The notes beneath the pieces are model-generated. The model did not search any database. It was not told where the DNA came from and saw only the letters and a list, made by a program, of their open reading frames with translations. A DNA stretch of 64,000 nucleotides, taken from assembly GCA_022780025.1 (NCBI GenBank), contig JALEXS010000031.1, positions 2,003-66,002 on the forward strand, written 5' to 3'. Source of the stretch: Mollicutes bacterium. GTDB taxonomy: Bacteria; Bacillota_I; Bacilli_A; RFN20; CAG-826. A program made the translations under genes and the position numbers. Positions within the stretch are counted from its first letter, which is position 1. The number at the start of each line of letters is the position of its first letter. Positions 17,185-33,354 of this stretch are shown here, piece after piece.

Positions 17185-19451
17185 ATAATTTTATAATCTT
17201 TAGGTAATATATAATTTAATTTATTACCTTTAGTTTCTAATATTAATTTATCTTTCTTAATAGGTATTATAACTTTAGCTTCATCATATAAACCTACTTT
17301 ATTTAAATATATATTTTTATTTTTATAATCAATAAAAGTTAAACCAAAATTAGCTTCTAAAATAATATTAACTATAAAACTAGTAAAACAATGATTTAAA
17401 CTAGCAAAAATAGAATCATGTTCCCATAAAGTACCATTAGTAATTGCCATTTTATAAAAATATTCAATAGATTCATTAAATACTTTATTATATAAACCAT
17501 ATTTATTTAAGATCATTAATCTTAATAAAATACCCATCAATACATTAGATTTATAAACATTAGGATATATTAATTTATCATCTCTATATTCACCAAAATT
17601 ATTAATCATCTTATTAAAATAATCTTCATTATCTTCTTTTTTAATAATATTAAAATATAAAGCATAATATTGACATGTTTCAGTAGTATGATCTGTAGGA
17701 ATTATATTATTATCTTTATCTCTAATAGAATTATCTATAAAGAATTCATTATTAAATGAATATTTATAGATAATTTCTTTAAGTTTTTTACCTTTATTAA
17801 TAAGATTATTATCATTTAATAAGATACCTGCTTTAATTAAAGCTTCACTATAAAGCATATTAGTAGGATAATTTATACCTTTAATAAACTCTATATCATT
17901 AGCTTTACTCCATTCAACAAAGATCCAACCTTTTAAATTTTCAAGTAATCCTAATTCGTTTTCAAAATCTTTAAAATAATCTAATATTCCTTTTATATTA
18001 TTAATACTACTATTTAATATAGATTTAGAACCACCTCTATTAATATAATTATAGATTTCTAAAATATACCATAATGACCAATTAGGAATAAATTCCTTAC
18101 TAGGAAAATCAGCAGGATAACACATTGGCATCATACCTTTAGGTAAATTATCTTTCTTACATTTACTATAATTATCTAAAAAAGCAGATTCTACTAAATT
18201 ATAACCAGTTAATATAGGTTCAGCTTGTCCACTAAAATAAGAGTCACATAACCAACCTGCTCTTTCTCTACTAGGACAATCAGTTAATAAATCAACAGCA
18301 TTTTGTTTAAAAGTATTAATAGCAGCATCAAATACTTTATTAATTTTCTCATTATTAAAATTATATTTAATACTACAATCTTTATTCTCATATTTAATAA
18401 CACCAAATTTAGAAATAGATACTTCACCTTCTAAACAAATAATACGAGCATATTTTAAAGTATAAGGTTCAAAACTTATTAAATTATAATCTCCTTCTTT
18501 AAGAGAATAAGTAATACAGTTATGAGTTGTGTTACGAGAAAAATCAATTCCGACTAAATCTTCTTTACCTTTTTCTTTAATATCAATTTCGTCAAAGATA
18601 ATATAAATTAAAGCATCTTTTTTAACTTTTAATTTTAATCTAATAAATCCAGTAAGCGATATTTTATTTGAAAACGTTGCAAAACTCCACTTTTTTAAAA
18701 GTTTTTTATGTTCATTATTTAATTTAAAATCTAATTGACTAGCTACTTTATTACTGTCAATTTCCCATTCATCTTTAGGGAATATTTTTAAATAATCTAA
18801 TACCTGATAACGATCTTCATAAATCTTTTTATTTTCATTTATGAAAGAAATTCCATTTTCAATTAATTGATATTCATTAAATTTTAATATTGGATAATTA
18901 ACAATTCTATCTTCGAATTTTAAATTTTTAATAACTACTCCATCATAATCTCTATAAGGTTCTAATGGTGTATTTAATAAGATATTTAATCTATCATCTA
19001 TATTATATGATTCACTAAAAGCTCTTTGATAAGCAAATCTAGTTACTTTTCTAATTCTAGTTTCATTATTAAATATAGTAAAATCTTTATCACTAGTTTT
19101 AATAACACCATCATATTCATTTTTTATTTCGCAAATAAAAAATGGTTTAGTATTTAATGCATAAAATGAATTACAATTAGATCCTGAAACTTCAATAACT
19201 ATAACATTACATGTTTCATTTAAATCAAATTTATAATTATCTACTCGATAATAATCATGAGCATCTCTACTAGGACCATACCCTTTTAATTTACCATTAA
19301 TAAAAATACGATAAAAATTATTAGCACATAAACTAAATTTATATGTACCTTTTTGATAAATTACAGTTTTAAAAATTAAAGAAGAATTTAATTCATCTTC
19401 TTTACCTTCTGCCCATATTGCTTTTGCTTTTAAAAAATAAGTTTTCTTCAT
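17175..19451 (-). CDS. GH78-like alpha-L-rhamnosidase-family six-hairpin glycosidase (putative)
   Basis: 758 aa, no signal peptide. N-terminal FYRIFINGKLKGYGPSR recalls the rhamnosidase N-domain. TDCPSRERAGWLCDSYF resembles the GH78 DCPxRER-GW-GD motif. Family call is by motif recall only. Confidence 0.5.
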   Translation of the reverse strand: MKKTYFLKAKAIWAEGKEDELNSSLIFKTVIYQKGTYKFSLCANNFYRIFINGKLKGYGPSRDAHDYYRVDNYKFDLNETCNVIVIEVSGSNCNSFYALNTKPFFICEIKNEYDGVIKTSDKDFTIFNNETRIRKVTRFAYQRAFSESYNIDDRLNILLNTPLEPYRDYDGVVIKNLKFEDRIVNYPILKFNEYQLIENGISFINENKKIYEDRYQVLDYLKIFPKDEWEIDSNKVASQLDFKLNNEHKKLLKKWSFATFSNKISLTGFIRLKLKVKKDALIYIIFDEIDIKEKGKEDLVGIDFSRNTTHNCITYSLKEGDYNLISFEPYTLKYARIICLEGEVSISKFGVIKYENKDCSIKYNFNNEKINKVFDAAINTFKQNAVDLLTDCPSRERAGWLCDSYFSGQAEPILTGYNLVESAFLDNYSKCKKDNLPKGMMPMCYPADFPSKEFIPNWSLWYILEIYNYINRGGSKSILNSSINNIKGILDYFKDFENELGLLENLKGWIFVEWSKANDIEFIKGINYPTNMLYSEALIKAGILLNDNNLINKGKKLKEIIYKYSFNNEFFIDNSIRDKDNNIIPTDHTTETCQYYALYFNIIKKEDNEDYFNKMINNFGEYRDDKLIYPNVYKSNVLMGILLRLMILNKYGLYNKVFNESIEYFYKMAITNGTLWEHDSIFASLNHCFTSFIVNIILEANFGLTFIDYKNKNIYLNKVGLYDEAKVIIPIKKDKLILETKGNKLNYILPKDYKIIWN

Positions 19452-20974
19452 AATGTCTGTGAAACCTTTAAAGTTTCTTTTTTATTCTTTAATTTAGAAT
19501 AGTCAATTAAAAAATAATACCTTTCATTATCTATATTAAAACATTTCTCATCTAATTCCAAGTTTCTTTTAGCAAGTAACATATCACCAACAAAATATAA
19601 ATTATTTTCTATATGAGTATTAAGTGTAAATTTAATATTTAAATTAGTATCTTTATCAACATTAATAATTAATTTATCTCCCTCTCTAATTAATCCTTTA
19701 TTAGAACATGAAAAACCTATTGTTTCTGGTAAATACACTGCAAATCTAAGATTATTTTTTATATTTTTAAAACTAATTCTTACTTTTTCTTTATTATAAA
19801 TATCACCTTTAATACTTATCTCTTCTTGGTTATTACCATATATCTTCATGTCTTCTAATATAGAAACTAATAACTCATTATCAATATTAAAACTACTATA
19901 TTTTTTAACAAATCTTAATCCTTCTCCTAGTCTCATAGTGCAACAGAAAAATGCTTCATATAAATAACATTTGATACTATCATTATTGTCAATTAAACAA
20001 GTATTACATCCTGCTCCACCATTATTTCTTTGAGCCATTCTAAATGAATTAAGATATATTCTATTTAATAATAGTAAATATTTATCATCTTTAGTTATTT
20101 GATAAAATTTACTAGTTAATATAAATGAATCAACTATACAACAAGGTTCAGTCCAAGTATCTTTACGATTAAACCAATTAATATTTGAATAATCTAAAGT
20201 CATTCCATAATTGATATATTTTTTAAATATATCAATAGCATAATTTAAATATTTTTCTTCTTTAGTTGCTTCATAAAATGTTAATACACCCCTAGCACAA
20301 GATAACGTAGCATGTGTTTGACATTTTAAATTAATAAAGTCTAAGTTAATAAATTTATCTATTACTTTAATTAATATTTCTTTTAATTTATCATCTCTTA
20401 ATAAATAATAAGCTTCACTCATTGCATCAAGCATTATAAAAGCACAACCAACATCACTACTAGTAAGCCATCCATCTCTTATAACACCTTCAATATGACC
20501 ACCAACTCCCCCTATTTCTCTAGTACTAATAGGATAATGCTCATAGAATTTAGCAATCTTATAAATAAATTTATTAACTACACTTTTAATAATTGAAAGA
20601 ATTTCATCACTTCTAGATATTTGATAATATTCAATTAAGCCTCTTAAATACCAAGAATTACCACTAACTTGTTGTTCATCTAAATATTCATCATTAACGA
20701 TATTTCCAAAATATCCATCTTCATTTATATGTTCTTTAAGATGAGAAATTATATCATCTAATTGATTAAGAACAGATTCTTGATCTTTATCATAACCAGA
20801 AAGAGCAAAATAAAGGCTTGTTAAAGATAAAATGCATCTACCTTCCCAATCTCCTGGCCAACTAGCACTATATTTCTTATTAAAAATATCAGGATAACGA
20901 TACATCTTAGCACTAAGTCTTTTACGATTTAATCTAATTCTTCTTAATAAATCGCCTTCTGCAATCTTTTTCAT
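19448..20974 (-). CDS. Cys-rich (alpha/alpha)6-type putative glycosidase, GH127/DUF1680-like
   Basis: 508 aa, cytoplasmic. Motifs WPGDWEGRCIL, TEPCCIVDS, GGAGCNTC and FFCCTMRLGEG recall the Cys/Zn site of GH127 beta-L-arabinofuranosidases. The assignment is tentative. Confidence 0.4.
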   Translation of the reverse strand: MKKIAEGDLLRRIRLNRKRLSAKMYRYPDIFNKKYSASWPGDWEGRCILSLTSLYFALSGYDKDQESVLNQLDDIISHLKEHINEDGYFGNIVNDEYLDEQQVSGNSWYLRGLIEYYQISRSDEILSIIKSVVNKFIYKIAKFYEHYPISTREIGGVGGHIEGVIRDGWLTSSDVGCAFIMLDAMSEAYYLLRDDKLKEILIKVIDKFINLDFINLKCQTHATLSCARGVLTFYEATKEEKYLNYAIDIFKKYINYGMTLDYSNINWFNRKDTWTEPCCIVDSFILTSKFYQITKDDKYLLLLNRIYLNSFRMAQRNNGGAGCNTCLIDNNDSIKCYLYEAFFCCTMRLGEGLRFVKKYSSFNIDNELLVSILEDMKIYGNNQEEISIKGDIYNKEKVRISFKNIKNNLRFAVYLPETIGFSCSNKGLIREGDKLIINVDKDTNLNIKFTLNTHIENNLYFVGDMLLAKRNLELDEKCFNIDNERYYFLIDYSKLKNKKETLKVSQTL

Positions 20975-21047: not shown

Positions 21048-23492
21048 CTATTCACCAATTTTAACAAGTTCTACAGTTGTATAAGCGATATAGATCTTAG
21101 CATCGGTAACTGTAACGTCTGTTGGGACATAGAATGAGAAGTAATCACATGTTCTATCAGCAACCCAATTGATCTCAACTTTGTGATATCCTTCGCCAAC
21201 TTCAAGATCTAAAAATTTTTGACCATCAAAATGCATCATCCATTTAGCACCGTCATAATTTTGCATAAAGTAAACAACTGTAATTTTATATGTATTACCA
21301 TTTTCTACTTGGCTCTTGCTGTTACTATCAAGACATCTACACCATTCCATTGTGAAGTTAGTAGCATTCTTATATTCTAATAATGCTGCTGTAGCTTCAA
21401 ATCCTTCACCTTTTACATCACTTGGAACAGGAGCACCGTTAGTCATTTTAGCCATACCTTTATCTTGACTACCAAATGCACGTGCTTTATTAGTGAAAGA
21501 ATGTCCTACTTTATATCCGTTTTCTGTTTGATCTTCAGGAATAACAGGAGCAGTATAATCAAGTAATTCAACTGTCATATTACCCATGTAAATATCAAAT
21601 TCACTATTGCCATTAGGATAGAAGTTGATAATAATATCTCCAGCTTTAATAACGTATTCAAATGAAATACTCTTAATATTTCCTTCAATTACTTTTGTAT
21701 CAAATTCATTAATAGTTCCACTTTGGCCACCAGCACTCATTGGTAAAACTAAGAAACTATTATCATTAACACAATAATATCTATAGGAAATTCTTAATTT
21801 CATTCCAGCAATTAAGTTAGTAGAATTTAAACCTTCAAAAATATGTCCATCTCGTCCGGTTAAATGCATAATATTGGTTCCAAAACCTTCTTTGCCTTTT
21901 ATAGCATTTCTAATTGTTTCGTTTTCGATATTATCAACAATAAATGTTTCACCTTGACCAAAACTACTACCTTTTTCTTTCCAATCAAATGTAAATCCAC
22001 CAGGTGCTTTTAATTGGTCAGCGGTAGGAACTACTTTTGTAAATGAAGCAACATCAGTAGTTGTAATTTGGAAATTATCAATTGCAATTCTACATGGTGC
22101 ATCATTTGAAGGGAATCTAAAGAAGAAGAATCCAGCATTATTTTCTGTAGGATATGTTGTTTCAGCAAATTTATGTCTAAAATGAACTACTCCATCACTA
22201 GCTTTCTTTCCATTAGCAAATTGAACATTAGTTCCATCAAATCCATCATATCTTAATCCAAAATAAACATCACTTACTTTATCAGCTTCAATAATTTTGA
22301 AATCAAATTCAACTATATAATTCTTAGCTACACCTCTTGGTAAAGAATCATTTAATGTTAAATATAAAGCATTAGCAGCAGAGCCACATGTTTTACTAAA
22401 ATCAATAATTAAAGAGTTACCAGCAATAGCATCACTAGTTGCACTTAAATGAGATGCACCATTAGCATCACCAATTGCCTTATATAATGGAGATTTAATT
22501 CCATTAGCAAAGTTTTCTTTAAATGTTTTATTAGCAGTTTTCATGTTATCTAAAACATTATCTTCAGCAGTAACTTCAAAATATTCAGCAGTAACTGGAG
22601 TGACGTTAATTGTAAGAATTAATTCATCTGATTTTAATTCTTCACCTTCGCCTTCTTCAACGTAATAAGAAACTTTATGTTCACCAGCAATTTTACTATT
22701 AAATTTAGTATAATCAGCATTAATTGCTTTAGAATCAGTTGTATCAACAGCTTCCATTAAATTAGTAATATCAGTTTTTCCATCACCTGAAAGAGCTGTA
22801 ATTTTTGGTAAAGCTAAATCAACACCAGCTTGAACTGTAAAAGTAGTTTCACCTTCATAAACTAATTTAGGATCAACTTTAGGTAAAGCTTCAACAGTTA
22901 ATTTAACTGTGTCTTGTTTATTACCATCTTTAGTAGTAACAGTAATGTCTACTTGTCCTTCACTAATAGCAGTAATAACTGTTCCATCAACTTTAGCAAT
23001 CTTATCATTAGCTGATTTTAATTCATACTCTTTATTAGTAGCGTTTTCTGGACTAACTGCAATTTTAGCATTACTAGTTTCACCAACTTTAATAGTAGTT
23101 TTATCTAATGTTAATTTAACACCAGTAACACTAACTGTAGCTTCAACAACTGTTAAAGTAGCACTACTTGTTTTATTACCATCTTTAGTAGTAACTTTAA
23201 TTTCAGTTGTACCTTTTCCGATAGCAGTAATAGTATCACCACTAACTGTAGCAACTTTAGTATCACTTGAAGTGATAGTATATTCTTTATTAGTTGCTTC
23301 TTCTGGAGTAATAGTAACTTTAGCTTTTGTAGTTTCACCAACTTTAATAGTAGCACTTTCTAAAGCTATTTTAACATCAGTTACATTTACTTCCTTTTGT
23401 GCTGAATTATCACAACTTGTAATTGTTGTAACAACTCCTCCAAGCGTTAAAAATGATGCTAACGCTACGATTGGAATAAATTTCTTTTTCAT
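21048..23492 (-). CDS. Surface lipoprotein: 2 tandem Big_2 domains plus C-terminal beta-sandwich (CBM-like) region
   Basis: Lipobox ITS|C. There are two about 85-aa Big_2 repeats (IKVGETTKAKVTITPEEATNKEYTITSSDTKVATV... and IKVGETSNAKIAVSPENATNKEYELKSANDKIAKV...). The remaining 600 aa have no recognised catalytic motif. Confidence 0.8.
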   Translation of the reverse strand: MKKKFIPIVALASFLTLGGVVTTITSCDNSAQKEVNVTDVKIALESATIKVGETTKAKVTITPEEATNKEYTITSSDTKVATVSGDTITAIGKGTTEIKVTTKDGNKTSSATLTVVEATVSVTGVKLTLDKTTIKVGETSNAKIAVSPENATNKEYELKSANDKIAKVDGTVITAISEGQVDITVTTKDGNKQDTVKLTVEALPKVDPKLVYEGETTFTVQAGVDLALPKITALSGDGKTDITNLMEAVDTTDSKAINADYTKFNSKIAGEHKVSYYVEEGEGEELKSDELILTINVTPVTAEYFEVTAEDNVLDNMKTANKTFKENFANGIKSPLYKAIGDANGASHLSATSDAIAGNSLIIDFSKTCGSAANALYLTLNDSLPRGVAKNYIVEFDFKIIEADKVSDVYFGLRYDGFDGTNVQFANGKKASDGVVHFRHKFAETTYPTENNAGFFFFRFPSNDAPCRIAIDNFQITTTDVASFTKVVPTADQLKAPGGFTFDWKEKGSSFGQGETFIVDNIENETIRNAIKGKEGFGTNIMHLTGRDGHIFEGLNSTNLIAGMKLRISYRYYCVNDNSFLVLPMSAGGQSGTINEFDTKVIEGNIKSISFEYVIKAGDIIINFYPNGNSEFDIYMGNMTVELLDYTAPVIPEDQTENGYKVGHSFTNKARAFGSQDKGMAKMTNGAPVPSDVKGEGFEATAALLEYKNATNFTMEWCRCLDSNSKSQVENGNTYKITVVYFMQNYDGAKWMMHFDGQKFLDLEVGEGYHKVEINWVADRTCDYFSFYVPTDVTVTDAKIYIAYTTVELVKIGE

Positions 23493-23550
23493 ATTGTCCT
23501 CCTAAAATTTTATTCACATTTTTATTTCAATAGATTTCTCTATTAGTTAA

Positions 23551-26547
23551 TTATTTAAATAAATATTGTGGCATTCTTGCAGTTGATGTCTTATTATTCT
23601 CAACATTATGAGCAACATTAGATGCTTGAATTCTCTTTCTAGAATCTCTTTCAGCATCACCAACAATAATTGCCATATTTATACGTTTATTATTATCAAT
23701 AGACTCTTTGAACTCTGGAACCATAGTGAAAGGATATTTAATTTCACCACTATAACCATTACTAGTTTTAATAAGTTTACATTCTAATAAATCTTTATTA
23801 TCAACATATTTTGAATTACTTCTAACTTTAGCAATTGTATTGTAATTAGTTGATGCCCAAGTAGGAGCAAATGCAGTTTGAATAACTCCACCTTCTTCTT
23901 TATAAACTTGTAAATCAGCAGTAGGCATATTAGTAATAGTAGAAGCTAAAACTTCAACACAATCACCCATCCAGAAATCATTAACAGTTCTACAATCTAA
24001 TTTATCATCAAAGATATCAAATCCAATATAAATACCAGTATCATCCCAAGTCATCATTAATTTCTTAACTTCAAAAGTAGGATCTAATTGAGCTTTAGTC
24101 CATTCATTACCTAAAGCATCGGTATAACCTCTTATTTCAATATCAGTAGCACCAATATTACCCCATTCATCAATATTTCCATCGATTGTAATATTTCCAG
24201 TAGCTTTAGTAACATCAACTTCAGGTCCAACATCATCAATAACTTGGAATTCAATTGATTTATTATCAATTAAATTAATACTATCTTTATTTGTAGTACC
24301 TTGAGGAATAATACCACTTAAACCTTTAGTTAAATTATATTGATTATAATTACCACTAATTGTAATATCACTTGCATTAGATAAACTAAATATACAATTA
24401 TAAGCTTCTCCATTAGGTTGAGATGAACTTACATCATAGAATAAATTATCTTTAATAGTAGAATCACCGACACCTCTAAAAGAAATAGCACTATTTCCAT
24501 TATTATAGAAATAATTATTCTCAATAGTTGCTCCTTTAATAGTTCCATTAGGTGCTACAGCTCCATTTTTAGCAATAGCAAATATTGAAACATCACCATA
24601 TAAAGTTCCACCAGTTAAATAATTATTAGATATAAATTTATTATTTCTAATAGTTATATCTTGAGGTAAAGTTGCTTCATTAAATTTATCCATTGCAGTA
24701 CCTGCTTGAATAGATCCATGACCAACATTTTGGAATGTATTATTTTCAATAATAGCATTAGGAACTTGAACTAAAATACCTCTATTTCTTTTATTTCTAA
24801 TAATATTATTTTTAAAAGTAAGCATTGGAGTATCATAAAGGAAAGTAACTCTAGAAGCATTCCAAGTATTATAATTTCTAATTCTTTCTTTAACAGTGAC
24901 AAGCATCTTACCACTTTCTTCTTTAGCACTTACTACTGTATAAGTTCCATGTCCTTCAAAACTTTCTTCTTCATAAATTTGAATCTTATCACCCTCTTTA
25001 GGTAGATTCATTGAAGTAGTAACTCTAGAGAAAGTAAATACTTTATTTAAAGTATCGCAATCATCAACTTTATAATAGTAACCATGCTTAATATTTAAAG
25101 CATCATCATGAGAATATTCAATAATAGAATTAGTAACCTTAACTTCACCTTTCATCATTGAGAAATGTAAAGCATCAGCACAACTAGTCATTAAATTAAA
25201 TGTATTTTCTTCAATAACTTGATTATATTTATTTAAATAGAAATTATTAACATAACCACAAGTTAATCCCATACCATAAGCATGATTCAATGTAATAGAA
25301 TCAACATAAACATTTTCAGAGTTATCAATCGCTATACCTGAAACATCATATTGAGCAAATTGTAAAGTAGCTAAAGTACCAAGTTGAGATTCAACAATAC
25401 TATTTGTAAATGTAATAGTAGCAGTATATTGTTCATTAACTTCCTTAAATTCAATTGATTTAAATCCATCAACAACTAAATTACCATTTTGAATAGGAGT
25501 TTTAGTAGCTTTATGGAACTCTAAATAGCTTCTTAATTTCTTATTATTCTTAATAACTCTTTTAATAGTTTCATTAAATTCTTTATTAATCTTAACTTCT
25601 ATTTTTCTATTATCTATATCAAAAGATTCAATACTACCTGTAACATTAGCAGGTACTTCTTGAGTAAATCTTATATTATATAAAGATAAATTAGTACAAT
25701 TTGTAATAGTTAAATAACCTTTATAATTTAATTCATTTATCTTTATATTGATAATAGTATCATTACCTTCAAGCGTAACATTTCTTAATCCATCAAGAAT
25801 AAATGCTCTAGTTGTAGATACACTAGTTGTATCAATATCAACTTTACCTTTAGGTAATTTAATTTTAGTAGTTTTACCTTCATCACCATATTTTTTAGCT
25901 AAATAAATTGCAGCTTGAATACTATTTAAATTATTAATTTCAGTAGCACTACTAATAACACTTTTAATTTCTTCTAAAGTTAACTTAGTAACATCAATTA
26001 CTTTATCATAATTATCATCAGATTTACTTCCATAATATACTTCACTAGCTTCATCAATATTAACACCAATCTTATCTTGATCTTTAACACCAAATTTATC
26101 ACTAGTAGCAACTTTACTTTGATAAGGACTATCATAAAGAGCTTCACCTAATTCATTAGCATTAGTAGCATATGAATAATTTTCTTTAATAATCTTTAAA
26201 GATATAGAACTTTCTTTATTACCATCTTTAGTAATAACTTTTAAAGTAACATCCCCTTCTTTAATAGCACTTACTAATCCAGTATTTGAAATAGTAGCTA
26301 TATTATCATCACTACTAGAATAACTAACTTCTTGATTAGTAGCATCACTAGGACTAATTTTAGTATTTAATTGAAGAGTTTTACCTACATTTAAATAACT
26401 AACATTACTAGTTAAACTAACTGATTCAACTGATATTTCTTTCTTATCAATAGGATCATTTCCTTTATTACAACTAACTAAATTAGCACCTAAAGTAGTA
26501 AAAATTAAAGCACTACTAAGTAAAATAAGATTTGTCTTTCTTTTCAT
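23551..26547 (-). CDS. Surface lipoprotein: Big_2, right-handed parallel beta-helix (pectate-lyase fold) and C-terminal CBM9/DOMON-like domain
   Basis: Lipobox LVS|C. Beta-helix repeats include the conserved YSHDDALNIK (25087-25116) and NKRNRGIL (24772-24795). The C-terminus reads ITIDGNIDEWGN...MMTWDDTGIYIGFDIFDDKL. Paralogue of 26549..28771. Confidence 0.7.
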   Translation of the reverse strand: MKRKTNLILLSSALIFTTLGANLVSCNKGNDPIDKKEISVESVSLTSNVSYLNVGKTLQLNTKISPSDATNQEVSYSSSDDNIATISNTGLVSAIKEGDVTLKVITKDGNKESSISLKIIKENYSYATNANELGEALYDSPYQSKVATSDKFGVKDQDKIGVNIDEASEVYYGSKSDDNYDKVIDVTKLTLEEIKSVISSATEINNLNSIQAAIYLAKKYGDEGKTTKIKLPKGKVDIDTTSVSTTRAFILDGLRNVTLEGNDTIINIKINELNYKGYLTITNCTNLSLYNIRFTQEVPANVTGSIESFDIDNRKIEVKINKEFNETIKRVIKNNKKLRSYLEFHKATKTPIQNGNLVVDGFKSIEFKEVNEQYTATITFTNSIVESQLGTLATLQFAQYDVSGIAIDNSENVYVDSITLNHAYGMGLTCGYVNNFYLNKYNQVIEENTFNLMTSCADALHFSMMKGEVKVTNSIIEYSHDDALNIKHGYYYKVDDCDTLNKVFTFSRVTTSMNLPKEGDKIQIYEEESFEGHGTYTVVSAKEESGKMLVTVKERIRNYNTWNASRVTFLYDTPMLTFKNNIIRNKRNRGILVQVPNAIIENNTFQNVGHGSIQAGTAMDKFNEATLPQDITIRNNKFISNNYLTGGTLYGDVSIFAIAKNGAVAPNGTIKGATIENNYFYNNGNSAISFRGVGDSTIKDNLFYDVSSSQPNGEAYNCIFSLSNASDITISGNYNQYNLTKGLSGIIPQGTTNKDSINLIDNKSIEFQVIDDVGPEVDVTKATGNITIDGNIDEWGNIGATDIEIRGYTDALGNEWTKAQLDPTFEVKKLMMTWDDTGIYIGFDIFDDKLDCRTVNDFWMGDCVEVLASTITNMPTADLQVYKEEGGVIQTAFAPTWASTNYNTIAKVRSNSKYVDNKDLLECKLIKTSNGYSGEIKYPFTMVPEFKESIDNNKRINMAIIVGDAERDSRKRIQASNVAHNVENNKTSTARMPQYLFK

Positions 26548-26548
26548 A

Positions 26549-28771
26549 TTATATAACTCCTCTGATTGTGTTATTTTCTTTAATTAAATTGTTATTATTA
26601 CCACCATCTCTAACATAATTAAAACCAGAGATATTCCCACTAAAATAAGAAACATTATCTTTAATAGTTACATCATCACCATGATGGACATAGCAAGAAT
26701 AAGTACGACTATTACTATTAAATTCAAAATTATTATGAACATTTATATTACCAACACCATATAAAGCTAAGGTATTGCCAACACTCTTATAGAAGAAATT
26801 ATTATAAACCTCACAATCTTTTAAACTATTATTACTAGCGTTAGATGGACCTTTACTACCATAAGTAAATATTTGAACATCATCCCAACATTTTAAGAAT
26901 TTATTATTAAATATTTTAATATTTTTAGGAACGATAGCTTCTTTAAAAACATCATCAACACCTAATACTTGAATAGCACCCATATTGACATTTAAGAATG
27001 TACAATTACTAATAATAGAATCTCTACCTTGTAATAAAATACCTCTATTTCTTTTATTTTTAATAACACTATTAGTTAAACTAACTTTAGTAGCTTTTGT
27101 AGCATTGCCTAAATTATAACCAGTGTAATTTTTACTACCTCTATTAGGTACTTTTTTATCTAAAGTTAAATCAAAATTAGATCCAATTTTACTAACTTTT
27201 TCAACTTTATAAGTATCTTTATAACTCATATCTTCAGGATTATAAATTTCTACTTCATCACCAACATCAAAACCAATTGCAACTTCAGTTTGAGTTTGAC
27301 TAACAGAAACTACTTTATCTTCAATATTAGTTATTTTTGTATAAAAAGTTTTAACATTAATTGCATCATCATGACTTCCTTCTAGAATGCAATTACTAAA
27401 TTTAGCAACACCTTCTAAATTACAAGTATGCAAAATATCAGCAGTACAAGTAAGTAATCTATTTGTGCCTTCTTCTCTAACAAAATTAACTCTATTTAAA
27501 TAAATATTTTTACCATTATTAGTTCTAAGACCCATACCACCAACAGTATAAGTAGTGATATTTTCCATGAATGTATCGATACAATTTTGATAATAGAAAC
27601 CAAAACTTTCATATACTTGGAATCCAACAGCAACAACAGTTCCTTTTTTAGGAGTAACATATTTACAATATGGGAAATTCTTCTTTAAAGTAACTTTTAA
27701 TAATTTAGTACCACTATCATAAGTTAAATCAGTTAAGCCAGTACTTCCTGCATTATAGAATAAATTACCACTTCTATTAGGAACATAAGCTTGATATTCT
27801 TCATCAAAATAATATTCAGCATAACTTCCAGTTCTCTTTAAATAATATTTTTGATAAGTTTCATTACTTAAATCATATTCTTCATCTGGACTAACATAAA
27901 TATAAGCATAATTTTCATCTTCAGTAGAACTCATTACAGCTCCTGTAATAGTAGGAGATGGATTAATATCAAATGTAATATTATTTAAATGTAAATTAGA
28001 ACATCCATTAGCTTTAATAAAACCAACCCAACCTGTATAAACAAATTTAGTTCCTTCTTCACCAACTAAATAAACATTATTTAAATTATTAGCTAAGATT
28101 GTAGAACTCATATAATAAGTTCCTTTTTCAAATTTAATTATTTTAACACCTTCAACATCAGCTAAACTATTTAATAAAATAGTTAAATTACCTGCATTAT
28201 TATCACCAGTTAAAGTAACATTATAATCTTTAGCATTATATATAGTTCCATCAGTTGGTACTTTATATAATTCTTCATTTTGTAATAATTCTTTATCAAC
28301 ACCAACATTATTTTCTTCACTTAATCCCCATGAAGTTGATGTAGGATATTCATCATGTTTATATTCATCTTTATATAAATTATTTAAATATTCTTTATCA
28401 GCCACAACATTTTTCCTTTCTAAAATTAATAAAGAAATAGTATCTTTATAATTACCATCATTAGTAATTACACTTATTTCAATATTTCCAGTAATTTTAG
28501 GAAATACTGTATTATCTTTTATTTCGCAACTATTAATAGGATTAACTTCAAATCTATAAGATTGATCTTTAGCATCACTAGGATTTATCTCTACATTTAA
28601 GTTTGCTACTTCGTCAATATAAATAGATTCTTTATCACAAGTTAATTTAACACTTTCAACTTTAATAACTTCTTCAATAGGTGGATTATCATTAGTTTTA
28701 TTACCACAAGAAACTAAAGAACCTAGTGTTATTGATAAAAAAGTCTGCAAAACTAATACTTTTTTATTCAT
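26549..28771 (-). CDS. Surface lipoprotein: Big_2 plus right-handed parallel beta-helix (paralogue of 23551..26547)
   Basis: Lipobox LVS|C. Carries SHDDAINVK (27350-27376) and NKRNRGIL (27035-27058). A 25-nt stretch is identical with its paralogue at the NKRNRGIL site. Confidence 0.7.
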   Translation of the reverse strand: MNKKVLVLQTFLSITLGSLVSCGNKTNDNPPIEEVIKVESVKLTCDKESIYIDEVANLNVEINPSDAKDQSYRFEVNPINSCEIKDNTVFPKITGNIEISVITNDGNYKDTISLLILERKNVVADKEYLNNLYKDEYKHDEYPTSTSWGLSEENNVGVDKELLQNEELYKVPTDGTIYNAKDYNVTLTGDNNAGNLTILLNSLADVEGVKIIKFEKGTYYMSSTILANNLNNVYLVGEEGTKFVYTGWVGFIKANGCSNLHLNNITFDINPSPTITGAVMSSTEDENYAYIYVSPDEEYDLSNETYQKYYLKRTGSYAEYYFDEEYQAYVPNRSGNLFYNAGSTGLTDLTYDSGTKLLKVTLKKNFPYCKYVTPKKGTVVAVGFQVYESFGFYYQNCIDTFMENITTYTVGGMGLRTNNGKNIYLNRVNFVREEGTNRLLTCTADILHTCNLEGVAKFSNCILEGSHDDAINVKTFYTKITNIEDKVVSVSQTQTEVAIGFDVGDEVEIYNPEDMSYKDTYKVEKVSKIGSNFDLTLDKKVPNRGSKNYTGYNLGNATKATKVSLTNSVIKNKRNRGILLQGRDSIISNCTFLNVNMGAIQVLGVDDVFKEAIVPKNIKIFNNKFLKCWDDVQIFTYGSKGPSNASNNSLKDCEVYNNFFYKSVGNTLALYGVGNINVHNNFEFNSNSRTYSCYVHHGDDVTIKDNVSYFSGNISGFNYVRDGGNNNNLIKENNTIRGVI

Positions 28772-28773
28772 AT

Positions 28774-30519
28774 TTATTTATACCTCTGAAGCATTGTGTT
28801 ATAGATATCTTCTAATTTATTACCATGAAATTTCTTAATAGTAGATAAATAGCTATTCCAATTACTATCATTATTAATGTCAATATTGCCTTCAATAAAG
28901 CTAGCTTCATAATATGTAATTTGACTATCTAAACTTGCTTTAATTGTAGTAATTTCTTCATATTCTTTACTAGTAAACTTATATTCTTGAGGTTCTGGTG
29001 TCTTTAAATAAGGAGTATAAATTTCAGATTGTTCATTTAATTTAGTAATAACTTTATCATTCATTTTACCTACAAAATCATTACTCCAATATAAAGCACT
29101 AGCACTACCAACATTAGGAGTAATAGTTGCTCTATATTCTTCTTGATTACCAGTAAATGAACTAGGTACATTAAATGTCCAACTTGTATGAGCTTCATCA
29201 TCCCAAGTCCAATCTTCATTTTCTACACCATAAGATATTAATTGAGTTCCAAGTTCGCTATACATAATATCTAATAATCTAGCGACTTCTCTTTTATAAA
29301 TAGACTTAGTAGGAATAGTAGCACCATCAGCTCTAAAATAACCTAAACCTAATTGTTTTAATGGTCCATTATAATAAGATGAAGTTAAAGGACTAACAGT
29401 GACATATTCTTCATCATAAGTATATTTACTACCGTCTTCTTTAAAATTATTAGGATCTTCTTTTTGAGAAGTAATTAAATAAGGAGCAGCAGCAACAAAT
29501 GAACCTAATATTTTACCATTAGCAGCCATTGTGGTATCTGTTTTATTAGCTGAAGTATTTTTATCAATTAATCCAGCATCCCACATACTATTAGCAGTTT
29601 TTAAATATTTCTTATAAGCTTCAGTAATACAAACAAAAGTAAATTTAGAACCATCATCTTCTATTTCCATACCATTAGTTACATAACCATAACTTTGTAA
29701 TATGAAGTTTCTAAAATATTCATATTGCTTACTAGAAACTGGAATTTCATTATCACTACGACCATCATTATTAGCATCATAATTTTTAAAATCAGTTAAA
29801 ATACCAACGTAATCATCGATAGTTTTTATCTTACTAGCATCATCAATATTATGAGTTTTAGCATAACTTTTTGGATATCCATTATAAACATTTTTAATCC
29901 AAACATTATTAATAAACATCTTATAGGTTAAGTCTCTAGCTACATCTTTAGCACTTAAAGAACAATACATTAGCCCATTAGATAAAGTAGCAGTTTTCTT
30001 AGCATCTTCTTTAGATCTATCAATATTGAAATTATTATCTAATAATTTCTTATAATTAGGCATATAGTTATCAATTAATGAACCTACTTCACCAGTAGAA
30101 TCTTTATAACCTGCTTTATTAAAAGGAGTTAATGCATCAAAATTATTTTCAGCATATTGAACTTGTTCAGCTATAGGATTATTAAATAAGAATAAATCGG
30201 GTGTATTTTTAGGATTAGACCAAACAGCAGCACGTTGATTGTTATAAGCACTAGTATCTGGAGTAGTAAATCTAAAATTAATATTAGTAATCTTACTTAA
30301 ATATTTAAACATCTTTTGATCTTTATATTCAGGATTACCACTACTTTTTGGTGCAAATATATGAATAGTAATTGGTTCTTTTACTATTTGATAAGGATTT
30401 TCACTAGTTCCATTAGGTAAAAAATTATCTAAATTATAATCAACAGTTTTATTACCACAACTAACTAAACAACCACCAATTAATGTAAATAACGATAAAA
30501 ATAAAGTGCTCTTTCTCAT
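28774..30519 (-). CDS. ABC transporter extracellular solute-binding lipoprotein, large LplA-type
   Basis: The track ORF extends to 30597. The ATG at 30519 (MRKSTLFLSLFTLIGGCLVS|CGNK) has an AGGAGG RBS and removes the overlap with the permease gene. About 580 aa, directly downstream of LplB/LplC-type permeases. Confidence 0.8.
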   Translation of the reverse strand: MRKSTLFLSLFTLIGGCLVSCGNKTVDYNLDNFLPNGTSENPYQIVKEPITIHIFAPKSSGNPEYKDQKMFKYLSKITNINFRFTTPDTSAYNNQRAAVWSNPKNTPDLFLFNNPIAEQVQYAENNFDALTPFNKAGYKDSTGEVGSLIDNYMPNYKKLLDNNFNIDRSKEDAKKTATLSNGLMYCSLSAKDVARDLTYKMFINNVWIKNVYNGYPKSYAKTHNIDDASKIKTIDDYVGILTDFKNYDANNDGRSDNEIPVSSKQYEYFRNFILQSYGYVTNGMEIEDDGSKFTFVCITEAYKKYLKTANSMWDAGLIDKNTSANKTDTTMAANGKILGSFVAAAPYLITSQKEDPNNFKEDGSKYTYDEEYVTVSPLTSSYYNGPLKQLGLGYFRADGATIPTKSIYKREVARLLDIMYSELGTQLISYGVENEDWTWDDEAHTSWTFNVPSSFTGNQEEYRATITPNVGSASALYWSNDFVGKMNDKVITKLNEQSEIYTPYLKTPEPQEYKFTSKEYEEITTIKASLDSQITYYEASFIEGNIDINNDSNWNSYLSTIKKFHGNKLEDIYNTMLQRYK

Positions 30520-30529
30520 AAATACCTCC

Positions 30530-31399
30530 TTAGCCTTTAACTCCTCCCATAACAACACCTTTTTCAAAGTATTTTTGGAAGAATGGATATATAACAAGTA
30601 ATGGAAGAGAACTAATTACAATAGTGACATATTTTAATTGTTCAGCTTTATTAGGATCTCCATTACCTAATGATGAATTATTTGAAACTAACATATCTTG
30701 TAATACTCTTTGAAGTGGATATAAATTAGTTGATTGAACATAAAGTAAGGAATTAAAATAACTATTCCAATAACCAACAATTGCATATAAAACCATAACA
30801 AAGATAATAGGTCTACAAAGTGGTAATATAATCTTTAAGAATATTTGGAAATCACCACATCCATCAATTCGAGCAGCTTCTTGTAATTCACCTGGAATTG
30901 ATGTCGACATATAAGTTCTAATAACAATAATATTAAATACACTAACACAACCTGGAATAATAATAGCCCACATTGTATCGAGCATATTTAAATTTGAAAT
31001 TAATAAATAAGTAGGTATCATACCACCACTTATAAACATAGTTAAAGTTAAGAAAATATTTAAAAATCTTCTACCTTTAAAATCTTTTCTACTAAGAGGA
31101 TAAGCACATAACATTTGAAGACTTACTTGAATAACAGTTCCTAAGAATGTATAAAGTAAAGAATTTAAAAATCCTCTCATTAAACTTTCTTCTTTAAAAA
31201 TATCTTTATAACCATCTAAAGTAAAACCAACTGGAATTAGTCCTACTTCTCCTGCAACTACACTATCAGGACTAGAAAAGCTACAAGCTAAAACATTAAT
31301 TAATGGAATTAAGAAAAGTAAAGCAATTAATAACATAATAACTGTTATTACTACATCAAATACTTTATCTCTATTAATTCTTCTACTAAACCTTACCAT
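30530..31399 (-). CDS. Carbohydrate ABC transporter permease (LplC/YtcP-like)
   Basis: Six TM segments with the EAA loop LQEAARIDGCGDFQIFLKIILP. Confidence 0.85.
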   Translation of the reverse strand: MVRFSRRINRDKVFDVVITVIMLLIALLFLIPLINVLACSFSSPDSVVAGEVGLIPVGFTLDGYKDIFKEESLMRGFLNSLLYTFLGTVIQVSLQMLCAYPLSRKDFKGRRFLNIFLTLTMFISGGMIPTYLLISNLNMLDTMWAIIIPGCVSVFNIIVIRTYMSTSIPGELQEAARIDGCGDFQIFLKIILPLCRPIIFVMVLYAIVGYWNSYFNSLLYVQSTNLYPLQRVLQDMLVSNNSSLGNGDPNKAEQLKYVTIVISSLPLLVIYPFFQKYFEKGVVMGGVKG

Positions 31400-32376
31400 A
31401 ATGAATTATCACTCACTTTCTTTGAAATAAAGTTTGCACTTACTAAAATAATGATATTAATAACACTATTAAATAAGCCAATTGCAGTAGCATAACTATA
31501 TTGAGGAATTCCACCATAAGTAGGGAACGAGACTCTGTAAACATAAGTAGAAATAATTTCACTACTAACACTATTTCCAGCAGTATACATTAAATAAACT
31601 TTTTCAAAGCCAACATTAAGAATATTACCAATAGACATAATTAACATAATGATTGCTAAAGGAACAATTGAAGGGAAATTAACTGCAAATATTCTTCTAA
31701 ATCTACCAGCACCATCAATTTTTGCTGCATCATGAAGATTAGGATCAACATTTGCTAAACTGCCCATATAAACAATTGACCACCATCCTAAACCTTGCCA
31801 TAATCCACTAATAACATAGATTGAAGCAAAAGCTTTTGGATTAGTCATTGCACTAGTTGAATCAAATCCAAGGCTAACTAACATTTTAGTTAATACACCG
31901 GTATCAGCTCTAAATAAAATGAATAATATACCAACTAAAACAACAGTAGAAATAAAATAAGGTGCATACATTATTATTTGAACTGTCTTTTTAGCCCATT
32001 TATATTTAACTTCATTTAAAAATAAAGCATATATAATAGGTAGGGTTGAATTGAATATAATACTTAAAATACTTAAAACTAATGTATTTTTAACTAATGT
32101 CCAGAAGTTTGGTGAAGTAACGAATGTATAAAAATATTTAAATCCATTCATACTAGTCCAAGGACTTCCCCATATACCTTGAATTGCATTATAATCTTTA
32201 AAAGAAATAATAAGACCTTCTAATGGCATATAATGGAATACAAAGATATATATTATTGTTGGTAAAGCCATTAAAAATAGAGTTAATCCCCATTTAGACC
32301 AAAGGCTTCTTGGTTTAGGTTTTCTGATTAATTCTTCTTTTGAAAAGTTGAACTCTTTTTCTTTAATATTTGTCAT
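31393..32376 (-). CDS. Carbohydrate ABC transporter permease (LplB/YteP-like)
   Basis: TM-rich, with the EAA loop LHDAAKIDGAGRFRRIFAVNFP. First gene of the 24-kb minus-strand gene run. Confidence 0.85.
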   Translation of the reverse strand: MTNIKEKEFNFSKEELIRKPKPRSLWSKWGLTLFLMALPTIIYIFVFHYMPLEGLIISFKDYNAIQGIWGSPWTSMNGFKYFYTFVTSPNFWTLVKNTLVLSILSIIFNSTLPIIYALFLNEVKYKWAKKTVQIIMYAPYFISTVVLVGILFILFRADTGVLTKMLVSLGFDSTSAMTNPKAFASIYVISGLWQGLGWWSIVYMGSLANVDPNLHDAAKIDGAGRFRRIFAVNFPSIVPLAIIMLIMSIGNILNVGFEKVYLMYTAGNSVSSEIISTYVYRVSFPTYGGIPQYSYATAIGLFNSVINIIILVSANFISKKVSDNSLW

Positions 32377-32397: not shown

Positions 32398-32481
32398 TTA
32401 TAATAATTCTATTATTCTATGAGAATAAATAATCTAATATAAAATATATACTTTTTTGACATTTTGTTTTATTATATAAAT

Positions 32482-33354
32482 ATGAAAATTGATCAAAAAA
32501 ACGAAGTTTTTACTAAAGACGTGTATTATAGCTATTTATCTAATTCAATTGATTTTTCAATAAATCCTCTTGTTGTAGGCTTTGAAAAATGTCGACCAAC
32601 AAAGCAAGAAATTGTCTCAAATAAAACGTGCTATATCATTCACTATGTATTAAGTGGTGAAGGAACTTTAACCTTCAAAGATAAGAACTATAATATTACT
32701 AAAAATAATTTATTTATATTACCTCCACATTCTAATGCTTCTTATAAGCAAAATAGAAACAACCCATGGAGCTATATTTGGATTGAACTTAACGGTATAT
32801 CTATGAAATCTTTCCTAGATAAAATACAATTTGATACTGACAACTTCTTGTATCACGATAATGATAAATTATATTTAAAAAATTGTCTAATAAATATGAT
32901 TCTTGATGATGATAAAGCCACTCAAAAAAGCGAATACTACGTTATTCTCGGTTATATTTTTAAAATTTTTTCTTTTTTAATAAAATATTATCCTAAAGAA
33001 GTTGAGAATTATTCTTCAAAACAAGAGATAGTAGTTCATAAAATTTGTGAGTATTTAGATAGAAAATTTGATGATCCAAATATCAATTTAGATGAGATAG
33101 CAAAAAAGTTTTATTTCACTCAATCTTATTTAACTAGATTATTTAAAAAAGAAATGGGAATTACTCCAATTCAATATATTGATGAATTAAGAATGAAAAA
33201 AGCAATTGAATTATTAAGCCATAAAACTTTTACAATTGAACAAATTGCAGAGACTTTAGGATATAGTAATCAATTTTATTTTACTAAAAGATTTAAAAAA
33301 TATTATGGTATGCCACCGTCAAAATATAAACAAAAAAATCTAGTAGATTTATAA
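32482..33354 (+). CDS. AraC-family transcriptional regulator (cupin sensor plus HTH)
   Basis: The track start at 32464 is a TTG; the first ATG is at 32482 (MKIDQKN...). The C-terminal HTH reads SYLTRLFKKEMGITPIQYIDELRMKKAIELL...YSNQFYFTKRFKKYYGMPPSKYK. Divergent from the PUL. Confidence 0.85.
   Translation: MKIDQKNEVFTKDVYYSYLSNSIDFSINPLVVGFEKCRPTKQEIVSNKTCYIIHYVLSGEGTLTFKDKNYNITKNNLFILPPHSNASYKQNRNNPWSYIWIELNGISMKSFLDKIQFDTDNFLYHDNDKLYLKNCLINMILDDDKATQKSEYYVILGYIFKIFSFLIKYYPKEVENYSSKQEIVVHKICEYLDRKFDDPNINLDEIAKKFYFTQSYLTRLFKKEMGITPIQYIDELRMKKAIELLSHKTFTIEQIAETLGYSNQFYFTKRFKKYYGMPPSKYKQKNLVDL

Follow-up and report, generated by a model that had tools for sequence, protein, structure and literature searches.

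The alpha-1,3-galactosidases of family GH110 are used for blood group B conversion and also occur in marine carrageenan pathways. To our knowledge all characterised GH110 enzymes are exo-acting alpha-1,3-galactosidases that release one galactose, and a literature search found no non-galactosidase GH110 activity. Galactose release one residue at a time would not by itself yield importable oligosaccharides from a polymer. Solved members include PdGH110B (7jw4, 7jwf, 9beu) and PdGH110A (9beh, 9bev) of Pseudoalteromonas distincta, exo-alpha-1,3-galactosidases that belong to the lambda-carrageenan pathway, and AgaBb of Bifidobacterium bifidum (8yk1-3), AmGH110 of Akkermansia (8pvs) and PpaGal of Pedobacter (9i4f), which are blood-group-B alpha-1,3-galactosidases of the subfamily A/B type. 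Here we describe two adjacent genes, A and B, within a 64,000-nucleotide stretch of DNA from a Mollicutes bacterium (the window), whose products we are confident in calling GH110-family hydrolases. Judged from their sequences, they are lipid-anchored cell-surface enzymes that form a deep uncharacterised GH110 branch with a clan GH-N-like beta-helix. To the reading as a whole, a pair of surface hydrolases of this branch working in a glycan-harvesting system by the mechanism proposed below, we give a probability of about 70%.

Genes A (23551..26547) and B (26549..28771) lie in tandem on the minus strand with a gap of 1 nt, and encode lipoproteins of 998 and 740 aa. Both products begin with an N-terminal signal peptide and a lipobox (LVSC in each, giving Cys26 in A and Cys22 in B), and they align with one another by BLASTP at 28% identity over 755 columns (E 4e-62); the two adjacent paralogous beta-helix lipoproteins reported by the first-pass annotation are thus real. 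In A the signal peptide is followed by a Big_2 Ig-like domain (residues 40-120; 26188..26430, minus strand; PF02368 E 2.3e-17, with a Foldseek match to the Big_2 structure 7quz), a GH110-type catalytic region made up of a right-handed beta-helix with inserted beta domains (residues ~205-760; 24268..25935, minus strand), and a CBM9-like beta-sandwich (residues ~775-998; 23554..24225, minus strand). In B a degenerate Ig-like domain precedes the GH110-type catalytic region (residues ~200-708; 26648..28174, minus strand), which was delimited by phmmer and a canonical-GH110 profile, and there is no CBM9. The annotation had given each protein one Big_2 domain, and this holds for A by a clear Pfam match; B has no Pfam Big_2 match of its own, but its residues 37-118 align with the Big_2 of A, and PF02368 is recorded on B homologues. 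The CBM9-like C-terminus of A is supported by its fold (Foldseek matches to 1i82 and 7nwn at TMt 0.77-0.78 and E 4e-7) and by PF06452 on many homologues, but not by a Pfam match at E<=0.1 on A itself.

The beta-helices had been left without a family, with the suggestion that they may define a new one. Scanned against Pfam and NCBIfam, the two proteins gave nothing but Big_2 and a sub-threshold Beta_helix match; neither collection contains a GH110 model, which accounts for their having been left unplaced in the first reading. By sequence, fold and catalytic residues they belong to GH110, an existing family, and the new-family suggestion falls with this. A phmmer search of the PDB with A matched, among beta-helix proteins, GH110 only (E 1e-21 for 7jw4 to 3e-12), and with B every beta-helix match was again GH110 (E 4e-13 for 9i4f to 1e-8, also including 9beh, 7jw4, 8yk1 and 8pvs). 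In fact, each solved GH110 structure was matched by both proteins and other GH or PL families, beta-helix ones included, went unmatched by sequence; no GH28 chain appeared at E<=1 for either. A profile of 48 A homologues matched GH110 chains at E 2.8e-33 to 1.8e-25, and a profile built from canonical GH110 only (4 solved plus 4 close representatives) matched A at E 1.5e-49 (HMM positions 51-534 of 536) and B at E 6.4e-39 (positions 53-534 of 536), a coverage of 90% for both. On our own profile these scores lie within the criteria usually applied by dbCAN (E<1e-15 and coverage >0.35), and the assignment itself is routine, in that a dbCAN or HHpred run should find it. The Foldseek comparison that the first-pass annotation had proposed for the beta-helix core was run on an AF2 model of A (pLDDT 91.9) and ranked GH110 first and GH28 next: the top 15 PDB matches were all GH110 (E 1e-28 to 4e-25, TMt 0.53-0.77), with TMt at least 0.73 for both Pseudoalteromonas enzymes and PpaGal, and 0.75 at E 1e-28. 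The next fold was GH28 2uve (E 2.6e-9, TMt 0.33), and this fold-level match together with the missing sequence match led us to reject membership of GH28, a family marked by the NTD, DD, HG and RIK motif set. A phage tailspike origin was also rejected, with PDB tailspikes and lyases at E 4e-7 or worse and a best BFVD match of 4e-10 at TM 0.2-0.3.

The candidate active-site signature proposed for the two proteins turns out to correspond to the GH110 catalytic motifs, with ADxLH as putative base, SHDDA as putative acid plus base, and RNRG carrying the predicted subsite arginines. The motifs SHDDA[LI]N[IV]K and [LV]Px[DN]IxIxNNKF occur in both proteins as described. Two others needed correction: ADxLH is shared, but the Cys assigned to it falls in different columns (S-C-A-D-A-L-H in A, C-T-A-D-I-L-H in B), and NKRNRGIL is shared, but the K said to precede it is R in A (RNKRNRGILVQ). 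The roles of Asp321, Asp344, Asp345, Asn348, Arg451, Arg453, Trp486, Glu488, Arg265 and Asn85 in known enzymes were taken from PMC7939477 and the AgaBb paper. In PdGH110B, Asp344 is the general acid and D344N is inactive, Asp321 and Asp345 serve as base, and Arg451 and Arg453 belong to the +1 and -1 subsites respectively (PMC7939477); the D-to-N difference between 7jwf and 7jw4 sits exactly at the column of the first D in SHDDA. All coordinates that follow are on the minus strand. In A, Asp458 of ADALH (25174..25176) corresponds to Asp321 and is a candidate general base, Asp481-Asp482 of SHDDA (25102..25107) to Asp344 (acid) and Asp345 (base), and Arg587-Asn-Arg589 of RNRG (24781..24789) to Arg451 and Arg453. 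In B the equivalents are Asp445 of ADILH (27437-27439; base equivalent by alignment), the acid and base pair Asp468-Asp469 of SHDDA (27365..27370) and Arg574-Asn-Arg576 of RNRG (27044..27052). Across 125 aligned cores Asp458, Asp481, Asn485 and Glu624 (A numbering) are invariant, Asp482 is kept in 124 and Arg589 in 122. By homology with PdGH110B and AgaBb we infer a single-displacement (inverting) hydrolysis, in which the glycosidic oxygen would be protonated by Asp481 in A or Asp468 in B, and the attacking water would be activated by Asp458 and Asp482 in A or by Asp445 and Asp469 in B. The -1 sugar would be held, in A, by Asn485, Arg589 and Glu624, and the +1 sugar by Arg587.

The -1 subsite has been partly rebuilt. 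Asn348, Arg453 and Glu488 of the known GH110 subsite are retained in A and B, whereas Arg265 is replaced by Tyr and Trp486 by Phe, A has a shortened Asn85 loop and B has none, and a conserved Lys (Lys487 in A) has been added, by insertion or substitution, after the NI/NV of the DD motif. The Arg in question binds O2 and O3 of galactose and is conserved across characterised GH110 enzymes (Arg270 in the AgaBb paper). Its place is taken in A by Tyr400 (25348..25350, minus strand), which is invariant in the A alignment, and that of the Trp platform by Phe622 in the segment Phe622-Asn623-Glu624 (24676..24684, minus strand), where Glu624 equals Glu488; the versions in B are Tyr389 (VYESFG) and Phe610/Glu612 (DDVFKEA). 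The Arg265 column holds Arg in 8/8 canonical GH110 sequences and Tyr in 101 of the 117 others. In a maximum likelihood tree of the 125 cores, obtained by a quick search with anchors that are fragments taken from HMMER output, a branch with 98% SH-aLRT support splits off the Arg/Trp clade (4 characterised anchors and 4 relatives) and leaves A and B outside it. The A clade (n=25, 99%) and the B clade (n=36, 99%) are sisters within a clade of 69 (98%) inside the Tyr-bearing remainder. This remainder, 117 of the 125 cores, would have a differently built sugar pocket, and the clade with the Tyr/Phe/Lys signature comprises 93 cluster representatives at E<=1e-30, none of them characterised.

Because part of the conserved -1 subsite is replaced, we refrain from classing A and B with the known alpha-1,3-galactosidases, and sugar specificity is not transferable to them from the known enzymes. 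The Arg265 and Trp486 replacements, the lost Asn85 loop and the added Lys lead us to expect a specificity that probably differs from that of the characterised alpha-1,3-galactosidases, which act on blood group B, the alpha-Gal epitope or lambda-carrageenan. That the specificity might be a different one had already been suggested in the first-pass annotation, and the comparison of these residues leaves room for it. There is about an even chance that the -1 sugar is alpha-D-Gal or a derivative of it, and the target is most likely an alpha-linked D-galacto-configured residue in another glycan context. Although speculative, the Tyr/Phe/Lys clade may represent a new GH110 specificity, perhaps endo-acting or directed at a substituted or non-galactose alpha-linked sugar, with A and B as an obligate pair, possibly a heterodimer resembling the homodimer of PdGH110B, where part of one chain extends into the active site of the other. 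In uncultured gut Bacilli, Christensenellales and Oscillospiraceae with small genomes, this pair would then depolymerise a rhamnose-containing glycan at the cell surface. The added Lys and a GH28-like layout prompted us to consider an alpha-D-galacturonidase or rhamnogalacturonan hydrolase, a reading weakened by the genome, in which GalK and GalT are present and UxaC was not found (95% completeness); with UxaC absent, the genome lends no support to the use of hexuronates through the usual isomerase route.

Compared with the known systems, A and B share with PdGH110A and PdGH110B the beta-helix catalytic domain, the Asp triad, and the equivalents of Asn348, Arg451, Arg453 and Glu488, at 20-23% identity. 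They differ from both in the Tyr, Phe, loop and Lys changes, in being lipoproteins with Big_2 (and in A a CBM9-like domain), and in belonging to a rhamnose-linked locus of a gut Firmicute as opposed to a marine carrageenan locus. With AgaBb, AmGH110 and PpaGal they have the GH110 fold and triad in common and, by analogy, may share the trimming of gut or cell-surface glycans; AgaBb is also built of several domains, with binding modules at the C-terminus, and is located at the surface. On the other hand, the characterised enzymes have the Arg and Trp -1 subsite and fall in one clade (98%), with A and B placed in its Tyr-bearing sister group, and the accompanying genes are mucin O-glycan enzymes in the former case but an LplABC importer with GH78-like and GH127-like proteins in the latter. 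The GH28 (rhamno)galacturonases (exo and endo, e.g. 2uve) resemble A and B at the level of the clan fold and in an analogous layout of Asp, Asp-Asp, His-Gly and a basic residue; their inverting mechanism on alpha-D-galacto-configured sugars resembles the one proposed for A and B, and they also stand beside rhamnosidases in pectin loci. A and B match no GH28 chain by sequence, and the present host genome lacks UxaC.

The surrounding genes had been called a PUL, a term that does not fit, as this is an LplABC-type ABC-transporter locus of Gram-positive-type or wall-less Bacilli and not a Bacteroidetes-style PUL. Two ABC permease genes (BPD_transp_1; 30530..32376, minus strand) are the first of the operon, followed by an LplA-type solute-binding lipoprotein (SBP) of the importer (28774..30597, minus strand), whose start is probably an internal ATG at 30519 (MRKSTLF...LVSC). 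A divergent AraC-family regulator (32464..33354, plus strand) is conserved beside the cassette. Downstream of A lies a third lipoprotein of 814 aa (21048..23492, minus strand) in which two Big_2 domains and another Ig-like domain are combined with three CBM-like jelly-rolls. Then come the usual downstream partners, a GH78-like protein of 758 aa and a GH127-like protein of 508 aa (17175..20974, minus strand), both cytoplasmic and with weak family scores (1e-18 and 1e-6). Lipoboxes are present on A, B, the third lipoprotein and the SBP, and the GH3, GH78-like and GH127-like proteins have no lipobox and no N-terminal hydrophobic segment, in agreement with the earlier observation that they lack signal peptides. 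The third lipoprotein was considered as a hidden enzyme and rejected: its AF2 model (pLDDT 87.9) gave in Foldseek only Ig and CBM-like jelly-roll domains, with weak matches to Cry and Vip3 C-terminal domains, CBM22 and S-layer proteins, and it is probably a non-catalytic surface glycan binder. A and B accordingly remain, as had been proposed, the sole candidate extracellular enzymes of the locus.

The order SBP-B-A-third lipoprotein was found in 53/53 and 55/56 informative loci from ~60 species, the third lipoprotein following A in 55 of the 56, and over 50 genomes of gut Firmicutes share the cassette order. The relatives are all of gut origin, and the locus occurs in uncultured small-genome bacteria of humans and animals, among them MAGs recovered from Hadza and Nepali people who eat a fibre-rich diet. 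Together with the multi-CBM-like lipoprotein, A and B would act outside the cell on a rhamnose-containing glycan of dietary or microbial origin, trimming or cutting it, the resulting fragments would be imported by the LplABC-type transporter, and breakdown would be completed in the cytoplasm by the GH78-like, GH127-like and GH3 enzymes, the first two of which probably process the imported oligosaccharide. We infer the rhamnose link from neighbouring genes with weak family scores, and the window also holds rhaA and a candidate rhaD, which encodes a class II aldolase.

The most serious alternative is that A and B are ordinary GH110 exo-alpha-1,3-galactosidases that remove terminal Gal-alpha-1,3-Gal (alpha-Gal epitope or blood group B) from glycans of the diet or of host mucin, as their counterparts in Bacteroides, Bifidobacterium and Akkermansia do. 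Their family membership with an intact catalytic triad, the gut origin of every relative and the Leloir genes GalK and GalT would all suit such a role, yet Tyr stands in place of the Arg that binds O2 and O3 of galactose and Phe in place of the Trp platform, the Asn85 loop has been lost, and both proteins fall outside the clade of characterised enzymes. Their neighbours (GH78-like, GH127-like, rhaA and candidate rhaD) suggest rhamnose or plant-type glycans and not the mucin enzymes GH95, GH109, GH33 and GH20, and an invariably kept pair of paralogues at 28% identity suggests two different bonds; on balance we consider this alternative unlikely.

Much less probable again is a new CAZy family of polysaccharide lyases or tailspike-like depolymerases with a GH110 likeness at the level of fold only. 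An identity of just 18-23% to solved GH110, the failure of Pfam and NCBIfam to name a family and the position of A and B as the only extracellular enzyme candidates might invite it, but sequence significance is reached against GH110 alone (to 1e-49 at 90% profile coverage), intermediates form a continuum between the clades, the catalytic triad is conserved, and lyases, GH28 and tailspikes score at least 17 orders of magnitude worse in Foldseek. Least likely of all, to the point of being hardly credible, are non-catalytic adhesins or glycan binders on a beta-helix scaffold. Big_2 and CBM9-like modules on a lipid anchor are indeed seen in surface binding proteins, but the catalytic-site residues are invariant or nearly so over 125 cores and all kept in both paralogues, as fits purifying selection on catalysis, and the locus already encodes a multi-CBM-like protein that is probably devoted to binding. 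On the preferred reading, a surface pair of GH110-branch hydrolases, one sub-branch outside the characterised clade consists of an invariably paired couple, anchored at the surface, that heads a conserved sugar-harvesting locus. Identification of the substrate would reveal the diet of these poorly known gut bacteria and might bring a further activity into a family that is of interest to biotechnology.

A smaller observation concerns the 25-nt stretch common to the two genes (24772-24796 in A and 27035-27059 in B), which contains the RNRG codons of both. The identity noted earlier is exact, and the stretch is the longest word that genes A and B have in common. Its codons, for NKRNRGIL, are those that the organism prefers, and it can be put down to a conserved protein under strong codon bias: gene-wide the codon is shared at 169 of the 222 identical A/B residues (151 expected from codon usage), and the chance that all 8 NKRNRGIL codons agree, the residues being identical, is ~0.04. 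Gene conversion was rejected as the source, since residue conservation and strong codon bias suffice.

The two ORFs of the first-pass annotation were confirmed in coordinates and length: A, encoding a 998-aa lipoprotein (23551..26547, minus strand), and B, encoding a 740-aa lipoprotein (26549..28771, minus strand), are separated by a gap of 1 base and belong to a long operon on the minus strand; the G+C content of the window is ~25%. Both proteins carry an N-terminal signal peptide and a lipobox (…LVSC), its Cys being residue 26 in A and 22 in B, and the two are indeed paralogues, with 28% identity over 755 columns (E 4e-62). The motifs they had been said to share are present, although two strings were slightly miswritten: the first reads SCADALH in A and CTADILH in B, and A carries RNKRNRGILVQ. 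The reported 25-nt identity encoding NKRNRGIL (24772-24796 and 27035-27059) is exact, is the longest word common to both genes and is written in the organism's preferred codons. Recent DNA exchange was considered as its source and rejected: given identical residues, the probability of 8 identical codons in this stretch is ~0.04, and over the whole alignment the same codon is used at 169 of 222 identical residues versus 151 expected. We therefore attribute the identity to a conserved peptide.

The annotation had found no assignable family for the pair and suggested that they might define a new one. Pfam and NCBIfam searches returned nothing beyond Big_2 and a sub-threshold Beta_helix match. Searched with phmmer against PDB sequences, however, A matched every solved member of glycoside hydrolase family GH110, led by PdGH110B (7jw4/7jwf, E 1e-21) and followed by 8pvs, 9i4f, 9beh/9bev and 8yk1-3; B matched the same set (E 4e-13 to 1e-8), and neither matched any other beta-helix family. 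With a profile of 48 A homologues the GH110 E-value improved to 2.8e-33 and the match spanned the whole catalytic domain. As a stand-in for dbCAN we built a canonical GH110 profile from fragments of four solved enzymes and four close representatives, which recovered A at 1.5e-49 and B at 6.4e-39 (positions 51-534 of 536). An AlphaFold2 model of A (pLDDT 91.9, pTM 0.84) gave a concordant picture in Foldseek: the best 15 PDB matches were all GH110 (E 1e-28 to 4e-25), with target-normalised TM-scores of at least 0.73 for the two Pseudoalteromonas enzymes and PpaGal, and of 0.53-0.70 for AgaBb and AmGH110, which are multidomain proteins. A GH28 exo-polygalacturonase came next, at 2.6e-9; PDB entries for lyases and tailspikes scored 4e-7 or worse, and the best match in a viral structure library reached 4e-10 with TM-scores of 0.2-0.3. 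The C-terminal 220 residues of the predicted A model resemble the CBM9 modules 1i82 and 7nwn (TM 0.77-0.78), and PF06452 is present on many A homologues.

The shared motifs map onto GH110 residues whose roles have been described for PdGH110B (PMC7939477) and for AgaBb (AgaBb paper). In ADxLH, Asp458 of A and Asp445 of B align with the base candidate Asp321 of PdGH110B. The first Asp of SHDDA (Asp481 in A, Asp468 in B) aligns with Asp344, the general acid, whose D344N variant is inactive (PMC7939477); the difference between 7jwf and 7jw4 falls at exactly this column. The second Asp (Asp482 and Asp469) aligns with Asp345, a second base candidate, and the Asn that follows SHDDA with Asn348. In RNRG, Arg587 of A corresponds to Arg451 of the +1 subsite and Arg589 to Arg453 of the -1 subsite, while Glu624 aligns with Glu488. 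Across 125 aligned catalytic cores Asp458, Asp481, Asn485 and Glu624 never vary; 124 cores retain Asp482 and 122 retain Arg589. By sequence and predicted fold, then, A and B belong to GH110, an existing CAZy family whose catalytic residues they conserve. The earlier interpretation of the pair as extracellular enzymes, with these motifs as their active site, is supported; the claim that no family could be assigned is refuted. Our literature search found no GH110 activity other than exo-alpha-1,3-galactosidase, and for this reason we regard A and B as an uncharacterised variant inside a known family and not as a new family.

How far the variant departs from its characterised relatives is visible first in overall identity, which is 18-23% between A or B and the solved enzymes versus 25-41% among the solved enzymes themselves. 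The Arg that binds galactose O2/O3 (AgaBb Arg270, PdGH110B Arg265) and is described as conserved in all characterised GH110 (AgaBb paper) is replaced by Tyr400 in A, where it is invariant in the clade, and by Tyr389 in B. The stacking platform Trp486 of PdGH110B is Phe in both paralogues, and the loop of 15-20 residues bearing Asn85 is shortened in A and absent from B. The His of the canonical NIHG motif has its position occupied or adjoined by Lys in both proteins, being retained after Lys in A (Lys487-His488) and replaced in B.

At E<=1e-3, <=1e-10 and <=1e-30, an exhaustive HMMER search over 1.84 billion cluster representatives yielded 1705, 498 and 93 relatives, respectively, with E-values declining gradually and no gap among them. 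We built a maximum-likelihood tree (quick search, SH-aLRT supports), whose PDB anchors were fragments transcribed from HMMER output with lengths matching the reported coordinates. Arg and Trp are present in all four characterised anchors and in four relatives, which together share one side of a 98% branch, and outside this group 101 of 117 sequences have Tyr. The clades of A (25 representatives, 99%) and of B (36, 99%) are sisters inside a 69-member clade (98%), with Tyr/Trp forms branching between it and the canonical enzymes. As judged from sequence, A and B thus lie outside the characterised alpha-1,3-galactosidase clades and have a partly rebuilt -1 subsite.

On the observed base of family, fold, conserved catalytic residues, export and lipidation signals and conserved synteny, we propose that A and B would act at the cell surface, beside a CBM-rich binder, by inverting hydrolysis in which Asp481 (A) or Asp468 (B) serves as acid and the remaining two Asp as base. 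Products would be imported through the Lpl-type transporter and trimmed in the cytoplasm by GH78-like, GH127-like and GH3 enzymes. For the -1 sugar, the simplest reading is an alpha-linked D-galacto-configured residue, since the family chemistry applies, A and B retain counterparts of Asn348, Arg453 and Glu488, and the genome (G000) encodes galactokinase and Gal-1-P uridylyltransferase of the Leloir pathway (G000:C55:23478-23624 and G000:C33:25892-26344). A galacturonic acid reading is weakened because the uronate isomerase UxaC was not detectable in this genome, which is 95% complete. We expect the target to differ from blood-group B, the alpha-Gal epitope and lambda-carrageenan, because both paralogues, and their clades as a whole, have replaced the Arg, Trp and Asn85 elements; loss of the pocket-closing loop may allow the site to accommodate a substituted sugar or even to act in endo mode.

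The surroundings had been described as a PUL. Our data instead show an ABC-importer locus of an uncultured Bacilli bacterium (genome 1.43 Mb), not a Bacteroidetes PUL, the closest public relative being a Hadza human-gut MAG (94% identity). A divergent AraC regulator is followed by two LplB/C-type permeases, a large LplA-type binding lipoprotein (SBP; 28774-30597, minus strand), B, A and a third lipoprotein, and further on by GH127-like and GH78-like proteins (both lacking a signal peptide), a PocR/AraC regulator, an isomerase/kinase/aldolase cassette and GH3; further upstream sit rhaA and a candidate rhaD, which encodes a class II aldolase. The SBP ORF as listed starts at TTG and overlaps the upstream permease gene by 68 nt, but its signal peptide and lipobox (MRKSTLFLSLFTLIGGCLVSC) start 26 codons later, at ATG 30519, from which there is no overlap. 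The third lipoprotein (814 aa; 21048-23492, minus strand) comprises three CBM-like jelly-rolls and three Ig-type domains, two of them Big_2; its predicted structure (pLDDT 87.9) shows these Ig domains and jelly-rolls, no recognisable catalytic fold, and weak matches to C-terminal domains of Cry and Vip3 proteins, CBM22 and S-layer proteins. From this model its most plausible role is that of a surface glycan binder, and it looks like a SusE/F-type binder in a Gram-positive-type locus. A 198-aa antisense ORF within its Big_2 region (22909-23505, plus strand) would give a low-complexity product in which Val, Leu, Ser and Thr abound; this ORF is almost certainly an artefact, mirroring the repeats in the sequence that codes for the Ig domains.

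All 53 loci with sufficient upstream sequence, and 55 of the 56 with sufficient downstream sequence, share the order SBP-B-A-third lipoprotein; they come from ~60 species-level genomes labelled as uncultured Mollicutes, Bacilli, Candidatus Enteromonas, Onthovivens, Scatosoma/Christensenellales, Oscillospiraceae and Acholeplasmataceae. Within the genus, 3 of 25 genomes have the cassette (the window's own included, where A and B are the only GH110-type genes), as does 1 of 16 further genomes in the order, and both paralogues are present each time. Yet Christensenellales and Oscillospiraceae have it too. Its distribution is that of a patchy accessory module, and horizontal transfer has probably spread it among gut Firmicutes. 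The Bacilli-type locus also appears, in the same gene order and with 62-68% identity to A, in records labelled 'Bacteroides uniformis', 'Prevotella sp. CAG:755' and 'Lachnospiraceae bacterium' ('cleanbin' isolates); mis-binning or mislabelling probably explains these, rather than transfer into Bacteroidota. The window holds another uncharacterised glycan locus at 42082-46580 (minus strand), where two adjoining GxGYxYP-family putative glycoside hydrolases (540 and 959 aa) have as neighbours a type I phosphomannose isomerase and a second MalK-type ATPase.
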